Below the pieces are notes generated by a model. That model worked only from the letters and a program-made list of their open reading frames with translations. It did not search any database and had not been told where the DNA came from. From NCBI GenBank assembly GCA_043811375.1, contig JBDRNJ010000024.1:1-64000 (forward strand): a stretch of DNA of 64,000 nt. Reading direction: 5' to 3'. The stretch comes from a bacterium (GTDB taxonomy: Bacteria > Zixibacteria > MSB-5A5 > GN15 > FEB-12). This document shows, piece after piece, positions 22,362 to 39,535 of this stretch; position 1 is the stretch's first letter, and the number at the start of each line of letters is the position of its first letter. Made by a program: the position numbers and the translations under genes.

Positions 22362-22838
22362 TTACCTCACCTGGCGTTCCATTCTCAGTCCGGCCACTTG
22401 CTGCGCGGTACTGACCAGTTCAAAACCCGCCTTAAGGTAGCAGCCCAGGGTGATCTCGTCGCCGCTGAGAAAGTTTATGATCACTTTGGCGACATTCGAT
22501 CTGGCGGCGGCTCGCTCGTACAATAGATTCAGCATCTTGGTTCCGTAACCGCGTGAGCGCTGGTAGGGTGCTACTATCAGGTGGGCAGCCTCGACCGCCA
22601 TCTCCAGCGGCTTGTCCCACAGCTCGCCGTAGGCAACCAGCTTACCCGAGGTAAACAGTATGTAGGAGGTCACCCCGTCCCGCTGCCAGGAATCAATGAG
22701 GCCGTCCGATGGTGGAAACTGCGTCCCCCGGCAGACGTCGCGATACGTTTCCTCGGAATCGATCCAGGACAGCACCACCCGGGAATATTCAGCAGTGTAG
22801 GGAATGATGTCGGCTTTGACGTGAATCGGTTCATCCAT
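22362..22838 (-). CDS. GNAT family N-acetyltransferase
   Basis: VAPYQRSRGYG acetyl-CoA motif, YLKAGF. Confidence 0.85.
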   Translation of the reverse strand: MDEPIHVKADIIPYTAEYSRVVLSWIDSEETYRDVCRGTQFPPSDGLIDSWQRDGVTSYILFTSGKLVAYGELWDKPLEMAVEAAHLIVAPYQRSRGYGTKMLNLLYERAAARSNVAKVIINFLSGDEITLGCYLKAGFELVSTAQQVAGLRMERQVR

Positions 22839-22964
22839 TTGTCATTGGCTCCATTCTATGAAGGAGCAATATACGTCAGGAGCCACCGCCGCGCAACCGG
22901 CAGAAAGGGCAGCAGCAGATCGATTACGCCACCCCAAACAAGTAGGCTGGGTCATAATAAAGTT

Positions 22965-23094
22965 TCGTCAGGTCTTGCCACCGACGAAGTCGGGGGTGTG
23001 ACCTGACGATCATCCCACAAGTCCAGTTCTGGTAGGTCAAGCCTACTTGGGGCTTGACATTCATTTTGTCATGCCGCGAGTCGGCATGACCTAC
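22965..23094. repeat. Cluster of REP-like palindromes
   Basis: TCGTCAGGTC...GACCTGACGA hairpin (22965-23009) and GTAGGTCA...TGACCTAC inverted pair (23032-23094). Confidence 0.65.
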
Positions 23095-23102
23095 TGCAAC
23101 TG

Positions 23103-24011
23103 CTATTCCTTCACCCTGCGCTGGTTATAAAGTGCATCGGGATCCGAAAGATTGACCGGTTGATACATCATGTAATCCGGCTCGAAGTAGAACGTCTGTA
23201 CACTCATAGGGTAATCCAGAAAAGTGAGTTGCCGACTCTCGCCTCCGGGGTTAAGTGACCATATATTGCGAACACCATCAATCTCTTTCAGACAAATCAG
23301 AGGTGACGACCGACTTCGCCTATTGGCACTGATGTTGTCGGTGCCCAACTCCCGGTGAATCATGAGGGAGTCTGAAGCAATGTCATAAACAAGGATCAAG
23401 CCCGCCTCAAGATTGGAGCTGTCGGCCGACCCAAAGGTAACAAACAGAAACTGCGCGAAATCATGTGACATGAACCCACAGCGCCAACCCTTCAGAACGC
23501 GTATGACCTCCCACCGGTTAGCCGGCATCATCCTGACGATCTCCGCTATGCTTTCTTCCTTGTTCCCCCAAAAAGCCCTCAGGAGAGTGGAGTGTGGGTT
23601 TGAGAAGTTGAGGATGTCTTTGTTCTGTAACCAGTTACCCGGAGCGCTGTTAGCTTTGGAAACCAAGGTGTCATGCTTCTCTGAAGGCGACAGTATCACT
23701 CTTATCAGGTGTGTGAGACTATCCCCGATGGTTGTACATACAAAGGCGTTGGTATCACAGGCAAGGATCTGTCGGGCTACGATGCTGTCGATTACCTCGT
23801 GGTCCCAGCGGCCACCCCCTTGCAGCATACGAACGAAATAGTATTTCCTATCGTACTCGTAGTAACAAGAAGCAGTATCTTCCGCTATGATCACCTTATA
23901 GGCGCGAGCTTGGTCGAGGCGTAGCCACGTCGGCCCTACTTCCCAGTCTCCGGCCCTCGGCGCAGGGATCAGGAAGCTGCTAAGCAATATAATGTACAAA
24001 GTTGTTCTCAT
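23103..24011 (-). CDS. Hypothetical secreted protein (possible TolB-like beta-propeller blades at C-terminus)
   Basis: Signal peptide MRTTLYIILL..., GAGGT RBS; NIWSLNPGGESRQLT. Confidence 0.65.
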   Translation of the reverse strand: MRTTLYIILLSSFLIPAPRAGDWEVGPTWLRLDQARAYKVIIAEDTASCYYEYDRKYYFVRMLQGGGRWDHEVIDSIVARQILACDTNAFVCTTIGDSLTHLIRVILSPSEKHDTLVSKANSAPGNWLQNKDILNFSNPHSTLLRAFWGNKEESIAEIVRMMPANRWEVIRVLKGWRCGFMSHDFAQFLFVTFGSADSSNLEAGLILVYDIASDSLMIHRELGTDNISANRRSRSSPLICLKEIDGVRNIWSLNPGGESRQLTFLDYPMSVQTFYFEPDYMMYQPVNLSDPDALYNQRRVKE

Positions 24012-24063
24012 TCTGACCTCAGTCACACCCGCCCTCTTCGGGACCTGCACTGCCTGATCAGAT

Positions 24064-24789
24064 TCAATCCCGTGCTCCTTTGGCATCAATTGTGTCCTCA
24101 CACGGTACTGCAATAGAGCCCCAGAGAGGCTCAGGCAGTTCCAGGCACAGGCCGCTGGTAGTCTTACCACCCTGCCAGTGTATGTCAAGTAAGAGACTAG
24201 TGGAACCCGAAAAACTCAAGCTTAGCGAATCAACACCAAGCACAAAGATCCGCTCTGAAGCAGATTTCCCTGTTAAAGAGGACGTTCTTATCAACGTCAA
24301 TCCCGAGAAATCCTCAATTTCATATGCCGCTGCAACAAACTGATCGCTGGAGTCAATGGCAGATTGCCGGACCTCAGCGAGTGTGTCGGTACCCCACAGT
24401 TTTAGCTTGCCAGGGGGTTTATCGAGATTCAGTAGGAAGTACCACTCGAAATTACCTGGGCTCACGTCATAGGTAGCTGCGAACAATACGTTATTGTCGA
24501 CTATGTACATCTGAGCCTTTGAGGCCCGTTTGATCAAGCGAACCAACTCTCGCTCTCCGTCTGCCTCGTGACCTGATTTCAGTAAGAAGATCCCAAGCAC
24601 GTATGGTGTCATAGCGAAAGATGCCTGCAGCCTGGCCACTACGTGGTGTTCACTGTTGAATACAGAGGCAACTGTGCGCCATCTCAACGAACAGGATAGG
24701 AACATAACGCAAATCAGCAGCAGTATCGGGGTAACAGTATGGACCAGGACCCGAAGCACGATGTACAGGATAAACTTAAGTCTACTCAT
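24064..24789 (-). CDS. Hypothetical membrane-anchored or secreted protein
   Basis: GGAGGT RBS, hydrophobic N-terminus, 241 aa. Confidence 0.6.
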   Translation of the reverse strand: MSRLKFILYIVLRVLVHTVTPILLLICVMFLSCSLRWRTVASVFNSEHHVVARLQASFAMTPYVLGIFLLKSGHEADGERELVRLIKRASKAQMYIVDNNVLFAATYDVSPGNFEWYFLLNLDKPPGKLKLWGTDTLAEVRQSAIDSSDQFVAAAYEIEDFSGLTLIRTSSLTGKSASERIFVLGVDSLSLSFSGSTSLLLDIHWQGGKTTSGLCLELPEPLWGSIAVPCEDTIDAKGARD

Positions 24790-24836
24790 CTCTCAATTCA
24801 CCTCCCGCGATATAAGCCTTACCACCTTCCCCTATT

Positions 24837-26285
24837 CTACAAAAATGCAAACAGCGCCGACTGCGAAATTTCCAGCAGTCGTTGCGGGAAGAAGCCCAGG
24901 CCGAGTGTGCCGACAGCTGTTATCAGCAGCGCCAGTAAAATCGCCGGTGAGTATCTGACCGATATGAATGCCCCCTCCGGCTGGTCGAGGTAGCTCGCCT
25001 TAATCACGCGCAGGTAGTAGTAGACGGACAAGAACGAGTTCATGACACCGATCACTGTCAACCAGATATAACCGGCCTTAACAGCCGCCGAGAAGATATA
25101 GAACTTGCCGACAAAACCGACCGTGGGCGGGAACCCGGCCAGCGAAAACATGAACAGCGCCAGCACCGCCGCCAGGTAGGGGTTAGCCCGTGAGAGGCCG
25201 TTGAGTTCGGTAAAATCAGACTTGCAGCCGGAGCGCGTCTCCAGTAGAGTGACTACCGCAAAAGCGCCCAGGTTGAACATGGCGTAGGCCACCAGGTAAA
25301 AGACCGCCGCCGAGATAGCATCCTCTCCCCCAACCGCCAACGCCACCAGCAGGTAACCGGAGTGAGCAATCGATGAATAGGCCAGCATCCGTTTGACGTT
25401 TTCCTGCCTTAGCGCCATAATGTTACCGACAGTCATGGTCAGCACCGCCAGCACCCAGAAGACAGTCCCCAGCGCTTCGATTTCTGTAAACCCGATGGCG
25501 AATATCCGCAACAGCACCGCAAACCCAGCTGCTTTGGGTCCCACCGAGAAGAAGGTCGTCATCGGTGTCGGCGCGCCCTGGTAGACATCGGGCACCCAGG
25601 TATGGAATGGCACGGCGGCCACTTTGAACCCGAAACCAACCAGAATCAGCGACACCCCCAGGTAGAGGTAGAGTTGATAATTGGAGACGATGAAGTGACA
25701 GTCGGCGATCAATCGGCGCAGGTCGGTAGTTCCGGAGGCTCCGAAAACAAAAGCGATACCCATCAGCAGGAAGGCGCTGGCGAAAGCACCCATGATGAAA
25801 TACTTGATACCGGCCTCGTTGGACTCCAGTGAGCGCCGCGCGAATCCGGCCATCACATACAACGGCACCGACATGATCTCCAGGCCGAGGAACATGACTA
25901 TCAGGTCGGTGGTGTTGGCCATGATCATCATGCCCGCCGTTGAGATCATCAGCAGTGGGTAAAACTCCGGCCGGGCGATACCCTTGGCGTGAAGGAAGCG
26001 GTGAGCGATCAGCAGCGCCAGCACCGAAGTGCCTGCAAAGATTACTTTGAGGGCCACCCCGAAGCTGTCGCAGGTAACCATGCCGGAGAACCCGGATTGC
26101 TGATGTCCCCACTGGGCAACGGCCAGCGCCATAGACACAAGCAATCCCAACAACGACAGGCCGAAACACAACGGTTGCAACCGACGCACACAGCCGATTA
26201 GAAGTACCAGTGCGGCTGTTGCCAGGAGGGCTATCTCCGGGTAAATCAGGTCAAAACTTATCGCTGCTGAAGTCCAGTCAATCAT
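24837..26285 (-). CDS. nuoN: NADH-quinone oxidoreductase subunit N
   Basis: EAGIKYF, GFKVAAVPFHTWVPDVYQGAP, KRMLAYSSIAH. Confidence 0.97.
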   Translation of the reverse strand: MIDWTSAAISFDLIYPEIALLATAALVLLIGCVRRLQPLCFGLSLLGLLVSMALAVAQWGHQQSGFSGMVTCDSFGVALKVIFAGTSVLALLIAHRFLHAKGIARPEFYPLLMISTAGMMIMANTTDLIVMFLGLEIMSVPLYVMAGFARRSLESNEAGIKYFIMGAFASAFLLMGIAFVFGASGTTDLRRLIADCHFIVSNYQLYLYLGVSLILVGFGFKVAAVPFHTWVPDVYQGAPTPMTTFFSVGPKAAGFAVLLRIFAIGFTEIEALGTVFWVLAVLTMTVGNIMALRQENVKRMLAYSSIAHSGYLLVALAVGGEDAISAAVFYLVAYAMFNLGAFAVVTLLETRSGCKSDFTELNGLSRANPYLAAVLALFMFSLAGFPPTVGFVGKFYIFSAAVKAGYIWLTVIGVMNSFLSVYYYLRVIKASYLDQPEGAFISVRYSPAILLALLITAVGTLGLGFFPQRLLEISQSALFAFL

Positions 26286-26297
26286 ATAACCTACTCA

Positions 26298-26313
26298 GGC
26301 GGCGACCGCCGCC
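26298..26313 (-). promoter_or_regulatory. Putative bacterial SECIS hairpin
   Basis: GGCGGC-GGTC-GCCGCC stem-loop starting 15 nt after the in-frame TGA at 26329-26331. Confidence 0.75.
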
Positions 26314-26319
26314 ACAATT

Positions 26320-26541
26320 TCAAAATCCTCAGCCACCACCGAATCCGAGTTTTACTTCATCCTGGTCCACGATGACCGGGACAATCCTCTCTCCTTTGGT
26401 CAACTCAAGAATCATGTCTTTGGCATCGGGCGTCCGGCTGATGTTGACTTCCGTGAAGGCGATGCCTTCATCGGTATAGTGCTTTTTGGCCGCCTCGCAA
26501 TAGGGGCAGCCATCCTTGGTGTAGATGGTAACGTTACTCAT
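26320..26541 (-). CDS. Glutaredoxin-like probable selenoprotein, Uxx-star type (CPYC; ends GFGGG-U-G-F*)
   Basis: YTKDGCPYC, IVPVIV; TGA GGA TTT TGA tail plus SECIS-like hairpin; GGAGG RBS; start overlaps nuoM stop. Confidence 0.85.
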
Positions 26542-28123
26542 CGGATATTTCCTCCGCATGATCCGTTATTTCAATCACTGGTGCATCCCCAACCGTCAGG
26601 GATTCGGATAATTGGAAACCGTCGTCGCTCTGGACGGTACTGGCCCGGCTGACCTGTTGGAGCACCTGTCGGGCAGCCGGCTCAATCCGCTCAAACAGGG
26701 GACGCGGGTAGATGCCTATGAAGAATATCAACAGGACCAGCGGAATGAGGATTATCTTCTCGCGCCAGTCCAGGTCTTTCAGGTGCCGGTTTTCCTCCCG
26801 GGTAACCTTCCCGAAAAACACCCGCTGGTACATCCACAACATATAACAGGCGGCAAAAACCACGCCGCTGGCGGCAATGATACCGTACACAGCGTTGGCT
26901 TTGAAAACTCCCAGCAGGATCAGAAACTCACCGACAAAACCGTTGGTGAACGGCAACCCTATAGACGACAGGGTGACAATCATAAAGAACGTCGCATAGG
27001 TCGGCATCACCTTGGCAAGGCCGCCGAAGTCGGCAATCATGCGCGTGTGGCGTCGCTCGTAGATCATCCCCACCAACAGGAACAGAGCGCCGGTGGAAAT
27101 ACCGTGGTTAATCATCTGCAACACCGAACCTTCCAGGCCTTCCAGGTTGAGGGCAAACATCCCCAGCATGATAAATCCCATGTGCGACACCGACGAGAAA
27201 GCCACCAGTGACTTGACGTCCTTCTGGACCATCGCCACCAGGGCGCCGTAAATGATGGCGATCACCGACAGCACGCAGATGTAAGGCAGGTAAGCTAACG
27301 TCGCCTCGGGAAACATCGGCAGGCAGATACGGATAAAGCCGTAAGTACCCATCTTCAGCAGGACACCGGCCAGGATCACCGACCCGGCCGTCGGCGCCTC
27401 CACGTGGGCATCGGGCAGCCAGGTATGGAACGGGAAAAGCGGTACCTTGATGGCAAAGGCCAGCGCGAAGGCTCCGAAGAGCCACAACTGCACACTGACC
27501 GGGATAGGCATCTGCGTCATCTTGAGCAGGTCAAACGAGTACTCGCCGGCAAAACTGTGGTAGGCAAACAGCAGATACAAAACGCCCACCAGCATCAACA
27601 ACGAGCCGAACATGGTAAACAAAACGAACTTGATAGCGGCATACATTCGGCGCGGTCCGCCCCAGACCCCGATAATGAAATACATCGGGACCAGCATCAC
27701 TTCCCAGAAGACATAGAACAAGAACAGGTCAAGGGAGCAGAACACTCCGATCATACCGGTTTGCAGCAGCAGCATTGATGCGAAGTACCCCTTGACGCCG
27801 GTGGTGATCGAATTCCACGAGGCCAGAATACACAGCACCGTCAGGACCGTGGTCAGCACTATCAGCAGCAGGGATATGCCGTCTATGCCCAGGTGGTAAT
27901 GAATCCCCAGCGATGTCACCCAGGGCAGGTTGATTTCAAACTGCATGCCGTTGGCAACCGGGTCGAACATGACGTATAGCCAAATCGACAGCAGCATGGT
28001 GACAAAGGCGATAATCAGACTGATCGACTTGATACTGTCATGCCGGTGACGCGGCACGAGCAGCAACAGGATGGCTCCCAGCGCAGGGAAAAACGTCACT
28101 AATGTAAGAATCCTGTCTTCCAC
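26534..28123 (-). CDS. nuoM: NADH-quinone oxidoreductase subunit M
   Basis: FYVFWE, IKVPLFPFHTWLPDAHVEAP, LLKMGTYG. Confidence 0.97.
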   Translation of the reverse strand: MEDRILTLVTFFPALGAILLLLVPRHRHDSIKSISLIIAFVTMLLSIWLYVMFDPVANGMQFEINLPWVTSLGIHYHLGIDGISLLLIVLTTVLTVLCILASWNSITTGVKGYFASMLLLQTGMIGVFCSLDLFLFYVFWEVMLVPMYFIIGVWGGPRRMYAAIKFVLFTMFGSLLMLVGVLYLLFAYHSFAGEYSFDLLKMTQMPIPVSVQLWLFGAFALAFAIKVPLFPFHTWLPDAHVEAPTAGSVILAGVLLKMGTYGFIRICLPMFPEATLAYLPYICVLSVIAIIYGALVAMVQKDVKSLVAFSSVSHMGFIMLGMFALNLEGLEGSVLQMINHGISTGALFLLVGMIYERRHTRMIADFGGLAKVMPTYATFFMIVTLSSIGLPFTNGFVGEFLILLGVFKANAVYGIIAASGVVFAACYMLWMYQRVFFGKVTREENRHLKDLDWREKIILIPLVLLIFFIGIYPRPLFERIEPAARQVLQQVSRASTVQSDDGFQLSESLTVGDAPVIEITDHAEEISDE

Positions 28124-28126
28124 TCA

Positions 28127-30076
28127 TCACCTCAAAGCCATGTAGGCCACCAGCACCACCACTCCCAGGACAAAGGCGGTAGCATAACTACGCACTCGAC
28201 CGGTCTGAGCTTTTCGCACAAACTGTGAGTTGTCACTGTAGGCGTGGGCCAGCCCATTGAGAAAACCGTCGATCATCACCACATCGACTATTTTCCATAA
28301 GAACAGTGAGCCATAAACGACCGGTCTGATAATGACCGCGCCGTATATCTCATCGACGTGATACTTGTTTAGCAACAACCGGTGCAAGCCTGACAGCTTT
28401 TGTCGCCAGTGAGTAGCCAGTTCCGGTCGTTTGTGGTAAAACAGCCGAGCCATCATAATGGCCGTCAACACCAGCACCACCGAGGCTGCCATCAGGGTCA
28501 ATTCCACGCCGGTGTTACCGGCGGCGGCTGCCAGGGCATGTTCGCCGTCTCCCGTTCGGTTATGGGACATGACCGGCTCCATCCAGAGTTCAAAACGGTT
28601 CACGAACCCAAACACGTGCGGCAGGCCAACCCACCCGCCGATCACCGCCAGCACGCCCAGCACTCCCAGAGGGATTGTCATCGAAAGGGGTGATTCATGC
28701 AAATGCGAACGGGTTTTCTCGTCCATCCGTTCCCGTCCGTGGAATGTAAGGTAAACCAGGCGGAACATGTAAAACGCGGTCAATCCGGCCGTGACAAAAC
28801 CGATCACCCAGAACACGGGATGGCCGTGCGGAGATGAAAAGGATTTCCAGAGTATCTCATCCTTGGAGAAAAAGCCGGAGAACCCCGGAATACCCGCTAT
28901 GGCCAGGGTGGCCATCAGGAACGGCCAGTAGGTCGCCGGAAGGTATTTCTTCAAACCGCCCATCCGGCGCATATCTTGTTCATTGGACATGGCGTGAATA
29001 ACCGACCCGGCGCCCAGGAACAACAGCGCCTTGAAAAAAGCGTGGGTCATCAGGTGAAAAATGCCGGCCGTGAATGAAGCCACGCCACAGGCCAGGAACA
29101 TATATCCCAACTGGCTGACCGTGGAATAGGCCAGCACCCGCTTGATGTCGTTCTGGGCCAGACCGATGGAAGCAGCGAACAACGCCGTCACCCCACCGAC
29201 AATTGCCACCACCAGCAAGGCATCCGGGGACATCATGTACAGCACATTTGTCCGGGCCACCATATATACACCCGCCGTCACCATGGTGGCGGCATGGATC
29301 AGCGCCGACACCGGTGTCGGTCCTTCCATGGCGTCCGGCAACCAGACATAGAGTGGAATCTGGGCCGATTTGCCGATCGCTCCCACAAACAGCAGGATAC
29401 AGGTCGTGGTAATCAATGCCCCGCCGGCGATAAATACCGTCGGCGCCGTTTCCATAACTGTACGGAATTCCAGCGAACCCACCTGCCAGAATATAATGAA
29501 CATACCGATCAGAAATCCGAAATCACCGATGCGGTTGACGATGAACGCTTTCTTGCCGGCATCGGATGCCGATTTCTTTTCAAACCAGAAACCGATCAAC
29601 AGGTAGGAGCAGAGTCCGACCCCTTCCCAACCGACAAACATGAGGACGAAATTGTCGGCCAGCACCAGCGTCAACATGGCAAAAGTGAAAAGATTGAGGT
29701 AGGTAAAATATCGCCCGTACCCGCCGTCGTTGTGCATGTAACCGACCGAGTATATATGAATCAGGAACCCGACCCCACTGACAACAAGAATCATAACCGC
29801 CGACAGCGGATCCAGCAGAAAGCCGACGTTGATATGCAATGAGCCGGCCGGGATCCAACTGAACAGGGTCTGCTCTATGAAGCGAGCGTCCACCGGCAGC
29901 CCCTTCAGGTCAAGAAACAGCACCAGCGACATTATGAAAGACAAACCTACCGAAGCACAGCCGATAAAAGTAATCAACGGCCGCGGCAACCTGCCTATCA
30001 GCAGACCGTTGATCAGAAATCCGACGAACGGGAAAAGAGGAACCAAAAACAGGTACTGTGAATACTCCGCTGTCAC
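28127..30076 (-). CDS. nuoL: NADH-quinone oxidoreductase subunit L
   Basis: GKSAQIPLYVWLPDAMEGPTPVSALIHAATMV, HAFFKALLF. Confidence 0.97.
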   Translation of the reverse strand: MTAEYSQYLFLVPLFPFVGFLINGLLIGRLPRPLITFIGCASVGLSFIMSLVLFLDLKGLPVDARFIEQTLFSWIPAGSLHINVGFLLDPLSAVMILVVSGVGFLIHIYSVGYMHNDGGYGRYFTYLNLFTFAMLTLVLADNFVLMFVGWEGVGLCSYLLIGFWFEKKSASDAGKKAFIVNRIGDFGFLIGMFIIFWQVGSLEFRTVMETAPTVFIAGGALITTTCILLFVGAIGKSAQIPLYVWLPDAMEGPTPVSALIHAATMVTAGVYMVARTNVLYMMSPDALLVVAIVGGVTALFAASIGLAQNDIKRVLAYSTVSQLGYMFLACGVASFTAGIFHLMTHAFFKALLFLGAGSVIHAMSNEQDMRRMGGLKKYLPATYWPFLMATLAIAGIPGFSGFFSKDEILWKSFSSPHGHPVFWVIGFVTAGLTAFYMFRLVYLTFHGRERMDEKTRSHLHESPLSMTIPLGVLGVLAVIGGWVGLPHVFGFVNRFELWMEPVMSHNRTGDGEHALAAAAGNTGVELTLMAASVVLVLTAIMMARLFYHKRPELATHWRQKLSGLHRLLLNKYHVDEIYGAVIIRPVVYGSLFLWKIVDVVMIDGFLNGLAHAYSDNSQFVRKAQTGRVRSYATAFVLGVVVLVAYMALR

Positions 30077-30087
30077 GCTCTATATCC

Positions 30088-30390
30088 TCACCATTTCAAC
30101 AGGTTGAAACGGTCGATGTTGACCGTCTCACGATTACGGTAAAGGGTAATCACCATAGCCAGTCCCACCGCGGCCTCGGCTGCGGCCACCGCCAGTACCA
30201 GGAAAACGATGGCATGACCATCGGCTATCTTCAGCGCCCGCGAGAAGGCGATTAAGGCCAGGTTGGCGGCGTTAAGCATCAACTCGACCGACATAAACAT
30301 CACAATAATGTTGCGGCAGATCAGCACGCCCAGGGTACCGATACCGAAAAGCATCGCCGCCACCACCAGATACATGGTAATCGGAACCAT
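30088..30390 (-). CDS. nuoK: NADH-quinone oxidoreductase subunit K
   Basis: [18 protein letters not shown]; 100 aa from MVPIT. Confidence 0.95.
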
Positions 30391-30391
30391 C

Positions 30392-30970
30392 TCAACCACC
30401 TGTCCCATCGTGTGAATCCGGCGCCGCCGGAGGAGTAACGTCCCGGTCATCACGTTCCTGCCTGGCTATGACCACGGCGCCCACGATGGCCGCCAGTATC
30501 AGAATCGATGTCAACTCAAACGGATACAAGTATCGCGTAAACAAGACAGTGCCGATTTCCTCCACCGAACCAAACGCACCCGGCGACTTCGCCATAACGC
30601 CACCGCCGCCGGCATCTGGGAAAAAACCGCTCTTGACCACGAACCACAATTCCACGAACAGTAGCGCCGCCACCAGGTACTTGGTGAAACGACTGACCGG
30701 CGGTGAATTATCACTTAAGTCTTCGCGTCCCCGAAGGTTAAGCAGCATGATAACGAACAGGAACAACACCAGGACGGCACCGGCATAGACAATGATCAAC
30801 ACCGCTCCCATAAACACCGAACCCAACTGCACGTACAATACAGCCTGGGCTACTAATGACACAATCAGGTACAGCACCGAAGCCACCGGGTTACGCTGGG
30901 CGATCATCATGGTGGCACCGAATACGGCCACTATAGCGGATACGAAAAAGACTACTGTGTCGAGACTCAT
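30392..30970 (-). CDS. nuoJ: NADH-quinone oxidoreductase subunit J
   Basis: [23 protein letters not shown]. Confidence 0.95.
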
Positions 30971-31473
30971 TGGCTTTTATCCGTTATTCCGTACACCCGG
31001 CGTACCCGCCGGTAAATGCGTTTGAAGGGGTTGTCCTGTCGGGGATGCGGCACCAGCATTTGCTCCCTGGTCCAGATGAATGAGTCCCGGTCAAAGTCGG
31101 AGAATTCATATTCCTGCCCCAGGAATATCGCCTCCTCCGGGCAGGCCTCCTCACAGAAACCGCAGAAAATACACCGCAGCAGGTTGATCTCGTACAGCCG
31201 TGCTCGTCGTTCACCCCGTTCGTTCTCTTCCGGCTCCATGTAGATGGCATCGGCCGGACAAGCGGCGGCACAAAGCCCACAACATACACAGCGTTCCTCA
31301 CCGTTGTCATAGCGTTCCAGGTAGTGCCGACCGCGATAGCGCGGAGCCATCGGTTTCCTGCGGCGCGGATAATCCAGCGTCACCGGCTTCTTAAACAGGT
31401 GTTTTAAGGTAACATAGAAACCCTGCGGCATCTTGAAGATCACGTTACCCAGTGCTTGTATGAAAGCTTTCAT
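30967..31473 (-). CDS. nuoI: NADH-quinone oxidoreductase subunit I
   Basis: Two CxxCxxCxxxCP ferredoxin motifs, RYRGRH. Confidence 0.96.
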   Translation of the reverse strand: MKAFIQALGNVIFKMPQGFYVTLKHLFKKPVTLDYPRRRKPMAPRYRGRHYLERYDNGEERCVCCGLCAAACPADAIYMEPEENERGERRARLYEINLLRCIFCGFCEEACPEEAIFLGQEYEFSDFDRDSFIWTREQMLVPHPRQDNPFKRIYRRVRRVYGITDKSQ

Positions 31474-31495
31474 TTTAAGTTACCGGATTTCACGT

Positions 31496-32479
31496 TCACA
31501 ACATCACCCATGCAGCCGTAATCATAGTATTAAGCAGGGCCAGCGGCAACAACACCTTCCATCCAAACGACATCAACTGATCATAGCGGAACCGGGGAAG
31601 AGTACCGCGCAGCCAGATATAGAGAAACATAAACAAAAATACTTTCAAAACGAACCAGACTATAGACGGCAGCCAGGGACCCTGCCACCCGCCGAAAAAC
31701 AGGGTGGCGCCTACGGCCGATACGGCCAGCATGTTGGCGTACTCACCGATAAAGAAAGTGGCGAATCGCATGGACGAGTATTCAGTGTGGTAACCCGCCA
31801 CCAGTTCCGATTCCGCTTCCGGCATATCGAACGGCAGACGGTTGGTCTCGGCAATGGCGCAGGTAAGATACAACAGGAATCCCAACGGCTGCTTGAAAAC
31901 AAACCAGTCAAACACTGTGGCCTGTTGTGCTACCAGCTCCCGCAACGACAGCGTGTTGGCCAGCAGAACGACGCCAATAATGGAAAGACCGTAACCAATT
32001 TCATAGGAGATCATCTGCGCCGACGAGCGCAGGGCGCCCATCAGCGAATACTTGGAACCGGAGGACCACCCCGCCAGCACAATGCCGTACACGCCCAGCG
32101 ACGTTACCGCAAATACAAACAGAATACCGATGTTCAAATCGGAGATGACCATCTTGATCTCACGGCCAAAAAGCGCCGTATCCGCTGCAAAGGGAACCAC
32201 GGCAAAAGTCAGTAAGGCCGGAACAAACGAGATCGCCGGTGCCAGGGCAAATATGACCCGTTCCACGTTACTCGGCACCACATCTTCCTTGAAGATCAGT
32301 TTGATGGCATCAGCTATCGGTTGCAGCAGACCACGCGGTCCGGCATAGGCCGGTCCCACCCGATGCTGCATGAAAGCGACCACTTTCCTTTCCATGTAAG
32401 TGGAATAGGCACAGCCGGTCAGAACGGCCACAACTACCACCACTACCTTGATCGAAGCTACAATAATTATTTCCAGCAT
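31496..32479 (-). CDS. nuoH: NADH-quinone oxidoreductase subunit H
   Basis: GLLQPIADAIKL, ETNRLPFDMPEAESELVAGY, PRFRYDQLM. Confidence 0.97.
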   Translation of the reverse strand: MLEIIIVASIKVVVVVVAVLTGCAYSTYMERKVVAFMQHRVGPAYAGPRGLLQPIADAIKLIFKEDVVPSNVERVIFALAPAISFVPALLTFAVVPFAADTALFGREIKMVISDLNIGILFVFAVTSLGVYGIVLAGWSSGSKYSLMGALRSSAQMISYEIGYGLSIIGVVLLANTLSLRELVAQQATVFDWFVFKQPLGFLLYLTCAIAETNRLPFDMPEAESELVAGYHTEYSSMRFATFFIGEYANMLAVSAVGATLFFGGWQGPWLPSIVWFVLKVFLFMFLYIWLRGTLPRFRYDQLMSFGWKVLLPLALLNTMITAAWVML

Positions 32480-32483
32480 GGTC

Positions 32484-35051
32484 TTATTCGTCCACCTTGC
32501 TGATTTTCACCAGGTCCAGTCGTCTTTTGCGCATAAGCAACGATGTAACCGGTGTGGCTGAGAAATTGCGCGGCACCAACACCACCTCGGAGTCCAGCCA
32601 GGGTGATATCCGGGCCGGAGCGATGATCTTGCCCACCTCGGATTCAACCCGCACCGGAGCGCCCTCATTCAACTCAAATTCAGCGGCCAGATCGGCTGAA
32701 ATCTCAACGTACGCCTCACCGGAAAATGCAGCCAGCAGAGGTGACTTTTCGCTCCAGTGGCCACTGTGGTGCGGATCATCAATGACAAACAGGGGCAGCG
32801 GGTAATCATCGCCGACCGATTCCTGCGGACGTTTCACCGGCTGGAAATCCTTGGGCCGGGCCGGATCCGGCCGGATGGCAAGCAGTCGATCAATATCGCC
32901 AGTCATTTCATCGGTAGATTCAAACAAAGCGTTGCCGAATATTTCCGCGAGCATATTAATTATGTCATACCCCGGTCGAGCCTGACCAATCGGTCGAATG
33001 GCCGCACCGACCCGCTGCAGTCGGCCCTCCAGATTGACGTAGCCACCGGCTGACTCCATCCAACTGGTCAGGGGCAGGACCACATCGGCCAGGGCGGTTG
33101 TCTCATTTTCAAAGAGATCACAGGCGACCAGGAACTCCAGTTTCTCAAGGCCTTCTTTCACAAACTGACGATCCGGGCACAGCATCATGGGATCGGCGCC
33201 CATAACGATAAGACCGTTGATTTCTTCCTTTTTCATCAGGACCAGCATGGAGTCGGTAGTATGAGGTGTGCAATCGGGGAAAGCACCCCATTGAGATGTC
33301 AGCTCTTTCTTTATCGTTTCCGGCGGGTCGGGAATCAATCCCAGACGCTCGGCGCCGCATGAATTGGCATACCGCGCCGGCACCGCCAGTTGCCCCTTGT
33401 CACTCAGACCCAGCAGCAGGTCGAGATTGACTACCGAGGCGGCAATCGCTTCCCGCGCTCCGGATTGAGTGATAAGCTCTCCCATCATAAAGGTCACTCG
33501 CTGTCCTTCAAAGAGAGCCCTGGCCACCAGGCGTAACTCACTCTCGGCTACACCACAGATCGAGGCCGCCTCCTCAAGCGAAGAGACCTCCAGCTTATCT
33601 TTTAGATTTTGCGCGACATCGCTATCGACGATGTTTTCGTCTATAGCCGCCAGACAGATGCCACTGATAACAATCTCGTCGGTTCCCGGACGGTAGACCA
33701 GTTCGCCATCAGCCACGTCGGCCGATTTTACCGAGTACGGGTTGAGAGAGTAGATACGTGGTCGGCCGAAATTGCGAGCTCGGCGCAGGCGTAAGTATTC
33801 GTTGGGGTGTTCCCGCAGCAGATCGGAACCGAAAACAACGATCACATCCGAATCATCCAGATCGGCTATCTTAAACGACCGTCGGCACAACCCGGAGAAC
33901 AGGCTTTCGGTCCGTTCGGGCAACATGCGATAATCGAGTCGGAAATCGATATTATTGGAGTTGAAAACCGTACGAAGGAACTTCGAGAAGCAATACAGGG
34001 AAGCGTTATCGAGGTTTGGCGCGGCCAACCCGCCGATACAAACCCCGCCTTTTTTCTCCCTGATTTCGCTGAAACGCCGGTGGACTACCTCCAGCGCTTC
34101 TTCCCAGGTGGCCGGCACCTGTTTGCCTTCCTTCTTGACGAGCGGAGTCAGCAACCGTTCGGACGAGTTCGCGATCTGGTAGCCGTAACGGGTCACATCC
34201 GGCAGCCAGCCGTCATCGATATCATCATTACAGCGGGAGGTTGTGCGACAAACCTCGTTCTTATGATTATTCGTGTAGAGTAACAGGTTACTTCCCGAGC
34301 TATAAAAATTGCATACCGACGGCACTTTCCCGGCCAGCCACACCCGCATCTTGTAGCGCCAGTCAACGCAGGTCAGGGCACCCACCGGACAGATTTCAGC
34401 GAGGTTACCTGAAAAGGGATTGGTTATCTGCCGGCCCGGCGCGGCATTGATGGAAGTTGTATTGCCGCGACCGTAGGCGCCCAGGTCAAACTCTCCAAAG
34501 GCCTCTTTGTTGGCCCGAACGCAACGATAACAGAGGATACAGCGATTGCGATTGTGAGTGATCCCGGGACCGATGGAAATATCGTCAAAAGTGCTGGCGC
34601 TGCCGTCATCGGTAAAGCGATACTTGGTAAACTCAAAGCGACTGTCGTCCGCACCGTGAGCGTATGTAAGATCCTGCAGCTGACATTCCCCGGCCTGATC
34701 ACAGGTAGGGCAGTCAAGCGGATGATTGGTCAGGGTAAACTCAATAATCGCCCGGCGGCCCTGCAGCACTTTCTCAGAGTTGGTAAAAACGGTCATGCCC
34801 TCAGTGGCCTCCGTGGCGCAGGATACCATCAGCTTCGGGATTTTTTCGATCTCAACGTAACACATCCGACAGGAACCGGCCGCCTTCAGTTTGGGATGCC
34901 AGCAGAAGGTCGGAATGTAGATACCCAGTTTCCGGGCGGCATCGAGAACAGTTGTCCCCTTGGGAACACTGACCTGACGACCATCAATGGTCAGAGTGAC
35001 TGCCTTTGGAGCGGCCTTGCCGGTGGTTTTCTTTTCCGTTGTCTCAGCCAT
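32484..35051 (-). CDS. nuoG: NADH-quinone oxidoreductase subunit G (long form)
   Basis: FCWH..CRMC..SC, HPLDCPTCD..C, CILCYRC..CPVG; molybdopterin-oxidoreductase-like C-terminus. Confidence 0.95.
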   Translation of the reverse strand: MAETTEKKTTGKAAPKAVTLTIDGRQVSVPKGTTVLDAARKLGIYIPTFCWHPKLKAAGSCRMCYVEIEKIPKLMVSCATEATEGMTVFTNSEKVLQGRRAIIEFTLTNHPLDCPTCDQAGECQLQDLTYAHGADDSRFEFTKYRFTDDGSASTFDDISIGPGITHNRNRCILCYRCVRANKEAFGEFDLGAYGRGNTTSINAAPGRQITNPFSGNLAEICPVGALTCVDWRYKMRVWLAGKVPSVCNFYSSGSNLLLYTNNHKNEVCRTTSRCNDDIDDGWLPDVTRYGYQIANSSERLLTPLVKKEGKQVPATWEEALEVVHRRFSEIREKKGGVCIGGLAAPNLDNASLYCFSKFLRTVFNSNNIDFRLDYRMLPERTESLFSGLCRRSFKIADLDDSDVIVVFGSDLLREHPNEYLRLRRARNFGRPRIYSLNPYSVKSADVADGELVYRPGTDEIVISGICLAAIDENIVDSDVAQNLKDKLEVSSLEEAASICGVAESELRLVARALFEGQRVTFMMGELITQSGAREAIAASVVNLDLLLGLSDKGQLAVPARYANSCGAERLGLIPDPPETIKKELTSQWGAFPDCTPHTTDSMLVLMKKEEINGLIVMGADPMMLCPDRQFVKEGLEKLEFLVACDLFENETTALADVVLPLTSWMESAGGYVNLEGRLQRVGAAIRPIGQARPGYDIINMLAEIFGNALFESTDEMTGDIDRLLAIRPDPARPKDFQPVKRPQESVGDDYPLPLFVIDDPHHSGHWSEKSPLLAAFSGEAYVEISADLAAEFELNEGAPVRVESEVGKIIAPARISPWLDSEVVLVPRNFSATPVTSLLMRKRRLDLVKISKVDE

Positions 35052-35062
35052 CGTTGAAACCG

Positions 35063-36394
35063 TTAAAAATCAAATCGTGTTGTTACCCGGCAGGTGCCGT
35101 GGTCAATATGGTATTGCCATTCGTCGCGCCAGTGCTTGATGGCCGACTGAATCGGCATCACGGCTGCGTCACCCAGCGGGCATACCGTCCGGCCCAGGAT
35201 ATTGCAGCATATCTCTTCAATCAACTCTATATCACCCGGTTTGCCCAGGCCCTTTTCAATGCGCTCGATAATCTGCTTCAGCCAACTGGTCCCGTCGCGA
35301 CAGGGGGTGCACTTGCCGCATGATTCATGGTGGTAGAAATGGATCAACTTGAGAACCATCCAGACAATGCAGGTATCCTCGTTGAAGACGATCACCGCTC
35401 CCGAACCGAGCATCGAACCGACCGTCACCAGAGATTCGTAGTCCAGGTTGACATCGATCATCTCCGGTGTCAGCATCGGCGTGGAACTGCCGCCCGGGAT
35501 AACACCTTTCAGTTTCTTGCCGCCCCGGATGCCGCCGCCGTATGCTGGATCATATATAAGTTTTCTCAGGGAGAATCCCATCTCGACTTCGTAATTACCC
35601 GGACGCTGCACGTGACCGGACAGCGAGAATATCTTGCTGCCGGTCGACTTCTCGGTGCCCAGCGAGGCGTACCAGGCACCGCCACGGTTGATAATGTGCG
35701 GCACGCTGGCCAGTGTCTCGACGTTGTTGACAATCGTCGGGCAGGCGTACAACCCCTCGATCGCCGGGAACGGGGGACGCATGCGAGTCATACCCCGCTC
35801 TCCTTCCAGCGAATTGAGAAGGGAGGTCTCCTCACCGCAAATATAAGCACCACCGCCGGAATGGACGATCATATCCAGATCGTACCCACTGCCATGTATA
35901 TTCTTACCGAGATGGCCACGATCATACGCTTCCTCCCGGGCTGCCTCCATGCGCCTGATGCAATAATCGAACTCGCCCCGGATATAGATGAACATCGTGT
36001 GGCAACCGATGGAATAAGCAGCAATGGCCATTCCCTCTATTACCGCGTGAGGATCGCGCTCCATAAGAACCCGGTCCTTGCAGGTACCCGGCTCCGATTC
36101 GTCGGCATTGCAGCACAGGTAGCGCGGTTTGGGAGAATCCACCGGCACAAAGCTCCATTTGAGACCCGCCGGGAAACCGGCGCCACCCCGACCGCGGATG
36201 CCGGATTTCTTGACTTCGTCGATCACTTCCCGGGCCGACATCTCCGCCAGCACTTTCTTCCAGGCCCGGTAACCGCCATTAGCCTCGAACGTCTCGACCC
36301 TGCACTGCTCCGGGTTTTCGACGTGCCGGAACAGGTGCAGACGGTCGCTGTCGGCAACTTCGGCGGCATTGGTTATGACGGGTGAGTCAAACAT
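35063..36394 (-). CDS. nuoF: NADH-quinone oxidoreductase subunit F
   Basis: RGRGGAGFPAG, NADESEPG, YICGEET, ESCGKCTPC. Confidence 0.97.
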   Translation of the reverse strand: MFDSPVITNAAEVADSDRLHLFRHVENPEQCRVETFEANGGYRAWKKVLAEMSAREVIDEVKKSGIRGRGGAGFPAGLKWSFVPVDSPKPRYLCCNADESEPGTCKDRVLMERDPHAVIEGMAIAAYSIGCHTMFIYIRGEFDYCIRRMEAAREEAYDRGHLGKNIHGSGYDLDMIVHSGGGAYICGEETSLLNSLEGERGMTRMRPPFPAIEGLYACPTIVNNVETLASVPHIINRGGAWYASLGTEKSTGSKIFSLSGHVQRPGNYEVEMGFSLRKLIYDPAYGGGIRGGKKLKGVIPGGSSTPMLTPEMIDVNLDYESLVTVGSMLGSGAVIVFNEDTCIVWMVLKLIHFYHHESCGKCTPCRDGTSWLKQIIERIEKGLGKPGDIELIEEICCNILGRTVCPLGDAAVMPIQSAIKHWRDEWQYHIDHGTCRVTTRFDF

Positions 36395-36870
36395 CAGTCT
36401 TTTTCTCTCAATTCCTGAAGAATCTGATCCACTTTTTCGCGGGTCAGGTTCTCATGGTAATCCTGGTTGATCTGCATCATTGGTGCGGTGGCACACGAAC
36501 CGAGGCACTCCACTGTCGTCAACGTAAAGAGGTTGTCGGGGGTGGTCTCACCCTTCTTGATCTGGAGTTTCTCTTCAAGGTAGGCCACCAGTGAGTCAGC
36601 ACCCAGCAGGGCACAGGATATATTATGGCATACCTGAATCAAATACTTACCGACGGGATGCTTGGGAAACAGCGTGTAGAAACTGGCCGCCTCCGCCACC
36701 TCAACAACCGGCACACCGATAGTTTCCGATATTTCCCGGTAAACGTCATCATTGAGATGCCCCACCTGTCGATATGCAATCGTTATAGCCGGCAGGATAG
36801 CCGACTTACGATGCGGATACTGCTCGGCTTTATCGCGAATGCGCTGCCTTGATTCATCCGTCAGAATCAT
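36394..36870 (-). CDS. nuoE: NADH-quinone oxidoreductase subunit E
   Basis: CHNISC, ECLGSC 2Fe-2S ligands. Confidence 0.96.
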   Translation of the reverse strand: MILTDESRQRIRDKAEQYPHRKSAILPAITIAYRQVGHLNDDVYREISETIGVPVVEVAEAASFYTLFPKHPVGKYLIQVCHNISCALLGADSLVAYLEEKLQIKKGETTPDNLFTLTTVECLGSCATAPMMQINQDYHENLTREKVDQILQELREKD

Positions 36871-38036
36871 CTGTCAACCTCTCCCAGAACGATATCGATC
36901 GATCCGATGGCACATACCACGTCCGCAAACAGCCGCCCTTCCACCAGGCGCGGCAGGGATGCCAGATTGATAAAAGACGGCGGTCGCACTCGAACCCGGT
37001 GCGGCTTGTTGCTGCCGTCGGATGAGATAAAGAATCCGATCTCCCCTTTGGGCGACTCGATAGCCTGGTAGACCGCTCCTAACGGTGCCTTGAAACCCTC
37101 GGTGATAATCTTGAAATGGAATATCATCGATTCCATCTTGTAGAGTATGTCTTCTTTAGGAGGCAACACCACTCCCGGCACGTGAGCCCGGTAAGGTCCC
37201 TCCGGCATACCATCGACAGCCTGTTCGGCGATGTTCAGTGACTGACGGATTTCCTCAAGCCGCAGCAGATAACGGTCGTAAGCATCGCCGTTTCGCCCAA
37301 TGGCGATTTCAAAGTCGAAGTTCTCATAACCGCTGTACGGGTTGGCTTTTCTCAGGTCATGTTTGACCCCGCTGCCGCGCAGCATCGGCCCCGAAAGGGA
37401 AAGATTGATAGCCTCTTCGGCGGAGATAACCGCCACCCCCCGGGTTCGATTGATAAAAATCTCATTCTTGGTCAGTAGTTTCTCATAATCATGCAGCCGT
37501 TCCCGGACAATCTTGACAATTTTTCTTACCTTGCGGTCAAAATCACGCGGCAGATCATGCGCCAGCCCGCCGATCCGGATATAGCTGGTCATCATCCGCT
37601 GACCGCCACAAGCTTCATAGATGTCCAGGATAAGTTCCCGCTCCCGAAAAGTATACAGCAGCATCGACATCGCACCCAGGTCCAGCGCATGCGTACCCAA
37701 CCAGACCAGGTGTGAGTTGACGCGAGTAAGTTCCGCCAGGCAGACCCGCGCCCATTTGACCCTGTCCGGTACGTCGACATCCATCAGCTTTTCCACCGCC
37801 AGGCAATAGCCGAGATTGTTGGACATCGGTGCCAGATAATCCATACGGTCTGTGGCCGGCAACGCCTGGTAATAGAGCTTGGACTCCATCGTTTTCTCAA
37901 TACCGGTATGCAGGTAACCGATCACGGGGCGCGCCCTGACCACCGTCTCCCCGTCCAATTCAAGCACCACCCGTAACACGCCATGAGTCGATGGGTGTTG
38001 CGGTCCCATGTTCAGGGTAATGGTCTGTTCAGCCAT
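36867..38036 (-). CDS. nuoD: NADH-quinone oxidoreductase subunit D
   Basis: NMGPQHPSTHGVLR, DRMDY, IDIVLGEVDR. Confidence 0.97.
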   Translation of the reverse strand: MAEQTITLNMGPQHPSTHGVLRVVLELDGETVVRARPVIGYLHTGIEKTMESKLYYQALPATDRMDYLAPMSNNLGYCLAVEKLMDVDVPDRVKWARVCLAELTRVNSHLVWLGTHALDLGAMSMLLYTFRERELILDIYEACGGQRMMTSYIRIGGLAHDLPRDFDRKVRKIVKIVRERLHDYEKLLTKNEIFINRTRGVAVISAEEAINLSLSGPMLRGSGVKHDLRKANPYSGYENFDFEIAIGRNGDAYDRYLLRLEEIRQSLNIAEQAVDGMPEGPYRAHVPGVVLPPKEDILYKMESMIFHFKIITEGFKAPLGAVYQAIESPKGEIGFFISSDGSNKPHRVRVRPPSFINLASLPRLVEGRLFADVVCAIGSIDIVLGEVDR

Positions 38037-38551
38037 TAGCGTATCACCTCGGGCGGCTTATCCTTGTTCCAGGTAAACTGCGGCTGTTCATAGGTGAGCG
38101 GGAAATCCTTGCGCAACGGGTGACCGTCAAGGTCATCGGGCGTCAATATCTTGGTCAGGTCGGGATGTCCCTCAAAGCTGATCCCCATCAGGTCGTAGAC
38201 TTCACGTTCCAGCCAGTCGGCCCCCTGCCAGAGGTGAGTGAGCGAAGCAATAGTCGGGTTGTCTCCGGGCAGCCGGACCTTCAGGAAAAACCGGTACTGG
38301 TGCGACAGGGAGTAAAGATTGTACACCACCTCAAAGCGGCCGTGCTTCTCCTCATCGTGACCGAGCCAGTCCAGAGAGGTGATATCAGCCAGGAATCTGA
38401 CGTCGAGATCACTGTCATGCATCAATTCCTCGCAAATAGGAACCAACGCATCAGCAATTATGTAGAACGACTGCTGATCCCGGAAATTATCTTCCCGGAT
38501 GACAGCCTCACCGAATGTACTTTTTAAAAAACTTCTGAGCTTCTCTTCCAT
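38036..38551 (-). CDS. nuoC: NADH-quinone oxidoreductase subunit C
   Basis: WLEREVYDLMG, GHPLRKDFP. Confidence 0.96.
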   Translation of the reverse strand: MEEKLRSFLKSTFGEAVIREDNFRDQQSFYIIADALVPICEELMHDSDLDVRFLADITSLDWLGHDEEKHGRFEVVYNLYSLSHQYRFFLKVRLPGDNPTIASLTHLWQGADWLEREVYDLMGISFEGHPDLTKILTPDDLDGHPLRKDFPLTYEQPQFTWNKDKPPEVIR

Positions 38552-38623
38552 ATCGCAGTGCTTGTTCCGTTGTTCACAAAGACAATCCGCATAACAGCGG
38601 CCGGAGCGCTGTCGCGAGCGCCT

Positions 38624-39127
38624 TCAGACCACCTTCCGTCCCCACTCATCGTGGCGATCCTTAACCGACTCTTTTTCAATCTTCTCCTGAAGCTTGAGTA
38701 TACCGTTCAACAGTTGCTCCGGTCGCGGCGGGCATCCCGGCACATAGACATCAACGGGAATGATCCGGTCGACTCCCTGAAGGACAGCATAGTTGTTGAA
38801 AATTCCTCCACAGGAGGCACAGGACCCCATAGCCAGAACCCACTTGGGGTTGGGCATCTGTTCGTAAAGTGTCCGGACCACCGGGGCCATCTTCATCGAC
38901 ACCCGGCCGGACACAATCATCAGATCAGCCTGGCGCGGGGATGGCCGCAAAACTTCCATGCCATAGCGAGCCAGGTCAAAATGGGGAGCAAAAGTTGAGA
39001 TCATCTCAATGGCGCAGCAGGCCAGACCGAAACCGAGAGGCCACATCGAGCGTTTGTGAGCCCAGTTGACTACTTTATCAAGGGTAGTGAGAATGATGGA
39101 ATCGGGAATCTTCTCTTCTAATCCCAC
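38624..39127 (-). CDS. nuoB: NADH-quinone oxidoreductase subunit B
   Basis: [32 protein letters not shown] start overlapping nuoA end. Confidence 0.96.
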
Positions 39128-39474
39128 CGCAGGGCTCCTTTTCCCAGGACATAAAAATACCCGACCAGAAGTATCACCACAAAGACCAACATCTCGATAA
39201 AGCCAAACAGGCCTAACTGCCGCGAGATAACCGCCCACGGGTACAGGAAGATCACTTCTATGTCAAAGAGTACAAAGAGAATAGCTACCATGTAGAACTT
39301 CACCGGTACCGGTTCCCGGGTAGTCCCGACCGGTGTCAGGCCGCATTCGTAGGGATCAGTTTTGTGGCCCTGCCTGGTTCGGCGTCCGATCAGGATCGAC
39401 AGCAACATCAGAATTGCCGCAATCATGGTGGCAAATATCACCAGGAAGAGGATCGGGTAAAATGTCTCGAACAT
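39118..39474 (-). CDS. nuoA: NADH-quinone oxidoreductase subunit A
   Basis: PYECG, FVLFDIE, KGALRW. Confidence 0.96.
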
Positions 39475-39506
39475 ATCTACAGCCAACTCCGCAAAATAAT
39501 TCCCCA

Positions 39507-39535
39507 ACTTTAGTCGATCATCCACTGGAAGTCAA
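39507..39535 (-). promoter_or_regulatory. Putative nuo operon promoter
   Basis: TTGACT-17 bp-TAAAGT upstream of GGAG RBS of nuoA. Confidence 0.5.

Follow-up and report, generated by a model that had tools for sequence, protein, structure and literature searches.

The stretch of DNA considered here, referred to as the window, comprises 64,000 nucleotides (nt) of contig JBDRNJ010000024.1 from a genome of the Zixibacteria (GCA_043811375.1). On its minus strand, between the complex I genes nuoM and nuoN, lies a short gene for a glutaredoxin-like protein in which an in-frame TGA is predicted to encode selenocysteine (Sec, U), and which is followed by a hairpin of the selenocysteine insertion sequence (SECIS) type. 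The gene and its signals are made up of the following features:

26551..26555, minus strand: Shine-Dalgarno-like GGAGG, read directly, 9 nt from the ATG at 26541, with a putative function
26323..26541, minus strand: full coding sequence of the predicted Uxx-star glutaredoxin-like selenoprotein, 73 codons (M1 to F73) when TGA is translated as U
26329..26331, minus strand: in-frame TGA, the predicted Sec codon (residue 71), conserved in relatives
26323..26328, minus strand: codons GGA TTT (Gly, Phe) between the two TGAs, read directly
26320..26322, minus strand: TGA, the true stop codon, always exactly two codons past the Sec codon in relatives
26298..26313, minus strand: SECIS-type hairpin with a G+C stem of six base pairs (bp) and a GGUC loop, from reading, folding and covariation
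26313..26308 and 26303..26298, minus strand: the two arms of the hairpin stem, with the loop GGTC at 26307..26304, read directly

Read on the minus strand, the end of the gene runs GGA TTC GGT GGT GGC TGA GGA TTT TGA and continues with AATTGT, GGCGGC, GGTC and GCCGCC. Translation from the ATG at 26541 with TGA as U gives a product of 73 residues, MSNVT...GCPYC...GFGGG-U-GF, with CPYC at positions 12-15 and Sec at 71, and the open reading frame (ORF) called with translation table 11 terminates at GFGGG. A preliminary description of the locus had reported this ORF end, the run GGC TGA GGA TTT TGA and a perfect 6-bp stem with a GGTC loop 15 nt after the first TGA; on re-reading the sequence all of this proved exact. 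The distance from the first TGA to the stem is exactly 15 nt and the loop starts 21 nt past the UGA. The hairpin is located wholly 3' of the stop codon, past the second TGA as had been proposed, and the ATG of nuoN follows 12 nt beyond it.

The family to which the protein belongs is indicated by the curated NCBIfam profile NF041212 (Uxx-star family glutaredoxin-like (seleno)protein), against which the 73-residue form reaches 112.4 bits (cut-off 66) and covers profile positions 1-70 of 70. With 104.3 bits for the form ending at the TGA, the three residues from the TGA onward add 8 bits. The characteristic ending of the family, a Sec or Cys with just two more residues and a stop behind it, is found in the window as U-G-F-stop, and the glutaredoxin/thioredoxin fold is recognised by Pfam PF00462 (48 bits), by an AlphaFold2 model and by Foldseek matches. 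The assignment to the Uxx-star family in the preliminary description is therefore borne out, since the protein exceeds the curated cut-off along the whole length of the profile. NF041212 has the sub-models NF041114, NF041211 and NF047338, of which NF041114 (UXX-star selenoprotein family 1) is barely passed with 75.4 bits against a cut-off of 72. For family 1, the table of a 2026 review gives two Sec residues and a UxxT motif at the N-terminus (PMC13188914). As the window protein carries CPYC in place of UxxT and lacks the second Sec of that motif, it is filed under the broader NF041212 only. It falls below the cut-offs of both the NrdH model TIGR02194 (49.1 bits, cut-off 85.75) and the Grx3 model TIGR02181 (51.1 bits, cut-off 90), which places it outside the NrdH-redoxins and the Grx3-type glutaredoxins.

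The listing of the Uxx-star family in the 2026 review credits it to Zhang & Gladyshev 2008 and Haft & Tolstoy 2025, and its entry offers for the family's Sec merely “metal-binding ligands or ... unknown substrates” (PMC13188914). The glutaredoxin-like proteins in the relevant passages of Zhang & Gladyshev 2008 are of the N-terminal UxxC type only (PMC2398784), and the portion of the BSepDB main text consulted contains nothing on the Uxx-star family (PMC13326102). The window protein shares with the family the small glutaredoxin fold and a Gly-rich stretch leading to the Sec or Cys at the third-last position, with two residues and a stop behind it; it differs from family 1, with its UxxT entry and two Sec residues, by the CPYC motif and by a clade in which the gene is fixed between nuoM and nuoN. 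The gene is a member of an already curated selenoprotein family and thus represents a mis-called gene, not a new kind of system.

Comparative evidence on the in-frame TGA comes from its conservation. A six-frame search covered 60 relatives and the genome of the window itself (61 genomes) and found the gene in 56 of them, with 49-74% identity in the relatives and exactly one in-frame TGA in each best match. Thirty loci were read in detail, one from the own genome and 29 from relatives, and all 30 end with G-G-U-G-X-stop at the same length, X being F in 23, I in six and V in one. The codon after the TGA is GGA in 12 loci, GGC in 10, GGT in four and GGG in four; the use of all four glycine codons is the pattern that translation of a glycine codon leaves. 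Of the 30 loci, 26 terminate with TAA or TAG and the other four with TGA. In a sample of the whole phylum, 173 of 251 genomes have a match above the family cut-off. Among the 150 phylum matches listed, 136 are flagged with one TGA and the remaining 14 alignments stop short of the tail; when all of these 14 loci were read, they were found to end in G-S-U-G-Y, G-S-U-G-F or G-G-U-D-F followed by a stop, with TGA in 14 of 14. Nine positions are invariant in a 39-sequence alignment, namely G11, C12, P13, C15, V54, P55, G66, U71 and G72. One orthologue outside this alignment (L107, on G246:C294) ends with GFQGGG-U-D-F-stop, and the Asp after its Sec implies that the Gly at this position, invariant in the alignment, is not universal.

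One alternative is that the TGA is an ordinary stop codon, which would give a 70-residue glutaredoxin ending in GFGGG, with the hairpin acting as an intercistronic element (a stabiliser, a processing site or a regulator of nuoN) without any recoding. This agrees with public annotation: in a collection of 5.8 billion proteins, 108 of the 120 best homologues are listed at 70 amino acids and the rest at 66-87, and all nine that were read end with GFGGG, cut at the TGA, one of them named “Uxx-star family” by its source. TGA is also the commonest stop codon of the genome, and a hairpin that ends 12 nt before the nuoN start could affect the translation of nuoN. What an ordinary stop leaves unexplained is a second stop exactly two codons past the TGA in 30 of 30 loci, a first codon that is always GGN with all four third bases, a second codon that always encodes F, I or V, and the exclusive use of TGA at this site, with TAA and TAG absent, among the 56 best matches and the 150 phylum matches listed. 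The NF041212 profile also spans the residues after the TGA, as seen in the bits gained there. Termination at the TGA is thus highly improbable. The gene is systematically truncated in public annotation, and because the public homologues are cut at the TGA, the residue likeliest to carry the chemistry is missing from the public records of a whole class.

The genome of the window (3.56 Mb in 92 contigs, 95% complete) has the machinery for Sec decoding. The genes selA (503 bits) and selB (324 bits) are adjacent on contig C68, selD (389 bits, Sec-type) is found on contig C27 (~74133-75059, locus L007) with one in-frame TGA, and a tRNA-SeC whose anticodon is tca lies on contig C9. The presence of selA, selB, selD and tRNA-Sec in one genome defines the Sec-decoding trait, and a search for these four genes had been proposed as a check in the preliminary description. 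The gene selD is itself a selenoprotein gene: its TGA at C27:74163 lies in the motif CSG-U-ASKLAPK, and 16 nt further on there is a stem GCCAAA/UUUGGC with a GUU loop. A crude genome-wide scan for stop codons that end an open frame of 60 codons or more and have a GU-loop hairpin behind them gave 71 hits for TGA, 55 for TAA and 25 for TAG, mostly in non-coding frames, and was set aside as non-discriminating. Two of its TGA frames resemble further candidate selenoproteins, “...RAKGS-U-GCTAAV...” (C51, minus strand, script index 5970) and “...NNSGC-U-SCGCL...” (C83, minus strand, script index 18938).

A second alternative accepts translation of the TGA and assigns it to another residue, either through a near-cognate tRNA (Trp or Cys) or through a genetic code in which TGA is a sense codon. 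The sequence data speak for protein-level constraint on the two codons that follow and not for the identity of the residue inserted. TGA is not reassigned to a sense codon in general, as it ends 446 of the 1064 open frames of at least 400 codons, 8 of the 14 nuo genes and, six bases further on, the very gene under study. Further points against this explanation are the dedicated Sec system, the covarying SECIS-type hairpin at a published distance from the UGA and the curation of the family as one of Sec and Cys forms. Insertion of a residue other than Sec is therefore scarcely credible.

The hairpin was found shortly 3' of the stop in all 30 loci, with stems of 5-9 bp and a loop that starts 18-23 nt past the UGA according to a best-stem script. 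In the register chosen by this script the loop is GGUC in 18 of the 30 loci. For three loci (L011, L012 and L019) the script took another register of a repetitive stem; the minimum free energy (MFE) structures from ViennaRNA have the loops GGUC, AGUUA and GGUC, respectively, which raises the count of GGUC loops to 20 of 30 when L011 and L019 are taken in the MFE register, and with the ViennaRNA registers for all three the loop contains GU in 30 of 30. Covariation was assessed on a MAFFT alignment of 29 sequences, with L020 left out for a run of N. The RNAalifold consensus contains this helix only; its six named pairs are paired in 90.8% of cells, and five of the six vary on both sides. Changes on both sides were counted in 34 cells compared with 11.0 +/- 4.1 in shuffled alignments, and none of 500 shuffles reached the observed value. 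In slid controls 25-51% of cells were paired, except for a slide of -3 with 82.5%, which is due to the GGC/GCC periodicity of the stem. The recurrence of the hairpin in 30 loci and the covariation of its stem show that it is present beyond chance.

These properties agree with what is described for bacterial SECIS elements, which have a stem of 6-8 bp and a conserved loop G about 20 nt past the UGA in the description given in PMC4605307, and a distance of 16-37 nt between UGA and apical loop in the account of PMC10778597. The hairpin of the window, with a 6-bp stem and a GGUC loop 21 nt past the UGA, lies within both. The preliminary description also likened its loop to the SECIS of E. coli fdhF, to which it ascribes GGUC at the apex. 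A terminator was considered and rejected, as there is no U-run after the hairpin and nuoN starts 12 nt on in the same operon; the same two features are counted against reading the TGA as an ordinary stop. When the window is folded alone, ViennaRNA favours a longer 11-bp pairing that encloses the UGA (z = -1.6, not significant). In this helix (26298-26340, minus strand) the glycine codons GGUGGUGGCUG pair with CGGUCGCCGCC. As it is not found in the consensus fold of the 29 relatives, it was rejected as a conserved structure; locally, it could compete with the SECIS hairpin. A hairpin after the stop is also present in both Uxx-star genes found outside the phylum, which come from metagenome-assembled genomes (MAGs) labelled Syntrophomonadaceae and Deltaproteobacteria.

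Two results count against decoding as Sec. A homologue with Cys at position 71 was not found among the 56 best matches, the 150 phylum matches listed and the nine database proteins read, so that the classical pairing of Sec and Cys forms is lacking in this sample; going by the name of the family, forms with Cys should exist elsewhere. The other is an Rfam scan of 26200..26400 with E-values up to 10, which returned seven matches at chance level and no SECIS family. This weighs little, since bacterial SECIS elements as short as this one are not covered by any usable Rfam model. Taken together with the family score, the Sec-decoding trait, the conservation of the ending and the hairpin, the gene at 26541..26323 on the minus strand is very probably a Uxx-star glutaredoxin-like selenoprotein gene with the TGA at 26331..26329 decoded as Sec. 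The preliminary description had proposed the same, a 73-residue protein with both a CxxC centre and a Sec. The conservation of the hairpin that it called for is seen as retention in 30 of 30 loci with compensatory changes in the stem, and homologues that end at GFGGG with TAA or TAG, which it had named as contrary evidence, were not encountered, as all keep the TGA. Its expectation for homologues stood in part: a TGA followed by two residues and a stop is conserved, and the Cys form that it allowed for was not seen.

Decoding would proceed through the binding of SelB, loaded with Sec-tRNA(Sec), to the GGCGGC-GGUC-GCCGCC hairpin while the UGA is in the ribosomal A site. After the insertion of Sec, Gly and Phe would be read and termination would occur at the next stop, with the hairpin being unwound just before nuoN. 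As the hairpin lies past the stop, in the 34-nt gap before nuoN, the SECIS would act from untranslated RNA. Bacterial SECIS elements are still described as located within coding regions in the section of the 2026 review concerned with them (PMC13188914). An engineered bacterial SECIS has been reported to function in E. coli from the 3' untranslated region (UTR), giving thioredoxin reductase with Sec near its C-terminus (Arner et al. 1999, as cited in PMC10778597). As described there, that construct resembles the arrangement in the window in that the SECIS follows the stop, does not have to be translated and serves a Sec two to three codons from the end. The element of the window differs in that it is natural, conserved across a class and placed in the intercistronic gap of an operon. 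If the prediction is correct, it offers a clear-cut natural example of a bacterial SECIS that acts wholly from untranslated RNA.

The fold of the protein was modelled with AlphaFold2 on the 39-sequence alignment with Cys in place of Sec, giving a mean predicted local distance difference test score (pLDDT) of 93.2 and a predicted template modelling (TM) score of 0.82. The model has strand 4-8, helix 13-24, strand 30-33, helix 40-48 and strands 56-59 and 62-65, as well as bridge or strand states at 53-54 and 71-72. There is no helix after the last strand, and the chain ends eight residues past strand 62-65. The tail, which had been called flexible in the preliminary description, has a pLDDT of about 88 and residues 71-72 in a β-bridge, and is thus probably not simply flexible. 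As all other strands have their usual partners, residues 71-72 would pair with 53-54, just before the cis-proline. The groove before the cis-proline is where glutaredoxins hold the Cys-Gly part of glutathione, and in Grx3-type glutaredoxins a C-terminal helix after the last strand carries the glutathione-binding motif. The product would accordingly be a minimal fold of the glutaredoxin/NrdH type without the usual C-terminal helix, in which the Gly-rich tail may carry Sec71 back to the CPYC/cis-Pro groove.

Sequence and fold searches of the PDB (the latter with Foldseek) point to Grx3-type glutaredoxins, NrdH, small redoxins of archaea and Bacillus, and the glutaredoxin domains of TrxR3 and thioredoxin glutathione reductase, with TM-scores of 0.70-0.82 normalised to the query; none of these matches has such a Sec tail. 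NrdH-redoxins and small dithiol glutaredoxins (1h75, 4hs1, 7c10, 3zij) are alike in the minimal fold (TM 0.77-0.82) and of similar length, whereas the window protein scores below the cut-offs of their models, lacks the helix after the last strand and has the Sec tail. Mammalian thioredoxin reductase and thioredoxin glutathione reductase have at their C-terminus a Gly-Cys-Sec-Gly tail that passes electrons to a glutaredoxin domain with a CPYC motif; the matches to the domains of TrxR3 and thioredoxin glutathione reductase are 3h8q and 6rtm. The likeness to these enzymes consists in a Sec near the C-terminus on a Gly-rich tail, with a CPYC glutaredoxin domain as the likely partner. In contrast to them, the window protein is one chain of 73 residues without a flavoprotein module, and its Sec has no neighbouring Cys. 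Sec71 could form a selenenylsulfide/dithiol relay with Cys12 and Cys15, which would be a one-chain version of the relay from Sec tail to glutaredoxin domain in thioredoxin glutathione reductase.

The genomic context of the gene is given by complex I, with the following features in the window:

26534..28123, minus strand: nuoM (TIGR01972, 653.7 bits)
24837..26285, minus strand: nuoN (TIGR01770, 448.1 bits), starting 12 nt past the hairpin
24837..39525, minus strand: complete operon nuoA-B-C-D-E-F-G-H-I-J-K-L-M-[selenoprotein]-N, from an NCBIfam scan of 20 ORFs

Within this operon the selenoprotein gene is the sole non-nuo insertion, and the nuoM stop codon TAA (26536..26534) overlaps its start: ATGAGTAA. 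The gene keeps this position between nuoM and nuoN in four families of one order and in one further family of the class. Among the 30 loci read in detail, 29 have nuoM upstream and nuoN downstream and the 30th is cut by a contig end; in the further family of the class, both genes are found at 12 of 14 loci, and in the other two (L098, L107) one side is cut by a contig end. Six named contigs from MAGs that bear the label Zixibacteria or Ignavibacteriales show the same order. Metatranscriptome data gave one 278-nt contig of a relative, with 15 differences over 26516..26793, from a run that matched 4% of sampled words; it spans the nuoM 3' end and the first 26 nt of the selenoprotein gene and is uninformative on expression or read-through. 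Three other metatranscriptome runs had no match to the locus.

From this arrangement, translation of the gene would be coupled to that of nuoM and its transcription shared with complex I, for which reason its most likely role may be that of a thiol/selenol reductase serving complex I, either by repair or protection of the cysteines of the complex or by removal of oxidants made there. A literature search found no selenoprotein tied to complex I or to nuoM/nuoN; Haft & Tolstoy 2025 (PMC12013261) may already describe the nuo context. By the titles listed, nothing relevant was found on the nuo operon with glutaredoxin, or on Zixibacteria with complex I or selenocysteine. If the conserved order of nuoM, gene and nuoN reflects function, the protein would, going by the literature found, be the first selenoprotein with a link to complex I, and the conserved complex I context is the one lead from this locus that may be new.

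Several observations weigh against such a role. The Uxx-star genes in the Syntrophomonadaceae MAG and the Deltaproteobacteria MAG have neither nuoM nor nuoN at their sides. The gene is missing from five of the 60 relatives, each of which has selA and no match to NF041212. Three of them (G009, G027 and G058) keep an adjacent nuoM-nuoN pair together with selA and have the gene deleted. Remnants are seen at the junctions: that of G009 (L089, ~1400-1500) retains VGFGSS-TGA-GL-TGA and a hairpin, that of G058 (L091) retains MIDVAIYT and a hairpin GCGGCU-GUGA-GCCGC, and in G027 (L090) a palindrome alone remains. The three losses look as if they arose by separate deletions. In three other families of the class, five genomes contain selA and NuoN and no Uxx-star gene. 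The deletions and the gene-free families imply that the gene is dispensable for complex I and specific to a clade. The own genome also has a second nuo operon without the selenoprotein gene, on contig C40, where the nuoM-nuoN pair at ~22388-25364 (47% and 38% identity to that of the window) leaves no room for a gene in between; relatives have two NuoN matches above the cut-off as well. For the proposed contact between tail and active site, the only source is the secondary-structure string of the Cys-for-Sec model. The chances that the function concerns complex I at all are roughly even, and the protein is probably not an obligatory structural subunit of the complex.

Three functional proposals can be set against these data. 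The product could be a bound accessory (supernumerary) subunit of complex I. The idea has a parallel in NDUFA2/B8, a thioredoxin-fold subunit of mitochondrial complex I, and it would agree with the position between nuoM and nuoN that is fixed over the families named above, with the overlap of the gene start and the nuoM stop, and with the fact that no other glutaredoxin-like gene was found in the own genome by tblastn (E 0.01). Deletion of the gene in three lineages that still have the operon, its absence from other families with the operon and from the second nuo operon, and the lack of any NuoM or NuoN cysteine that is kept with the gene and lost without it (36 and 34 sequences with the gene, three without) make such a subunit unlikely. 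Alternatively, the tail Sec, perhaps with CPYC, could be a metal or metalloid ligand and not part of a redox relay, with the position in the complex I operon serving steady expression only. This corresponds to the metal-binding option in the review cited above. There are no metal-resistance or transport genes around the gene in the window, dithiol glutaredoxins have the same CPYC motif and cis-Pro, and a nuo position kept throughout a class is hard to explain by expression alone; this ligand role is likewise unlikely.

In a third proposal, Zixibacteria may have added a dedicated selenoprotein to complex I, in which the protein's own Sec-Gly-Phe tail lies in the groove for the Cys-Gly of glutathione. 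This would make it a tethered seleno-glutathione and a self-contained relay on, or bound to, complex I. The SECIS could at the same time double as a spacer for nuoN translation, and selenium supply could then gate the synthesis of the last subunit. As a whole this proposal is tentative and must be regarded as doubtful.

Two minor observations concern the neighbouring genes. Directly 3' of nuoN (23103-24789, minus strand) there are two ORFs of 241 and 361 amino acids in different frames with an overlap of 125 nt, neither of which has an NCBIfam match at an E-value of 1e-5. At its C-terminus NuoM has an acidic extension, about 38 residues long (~492-529; 26534-26650 on the minus strand of the window), past the end of the TIGR01972 match at 491/529, and this extension varies among relatives.

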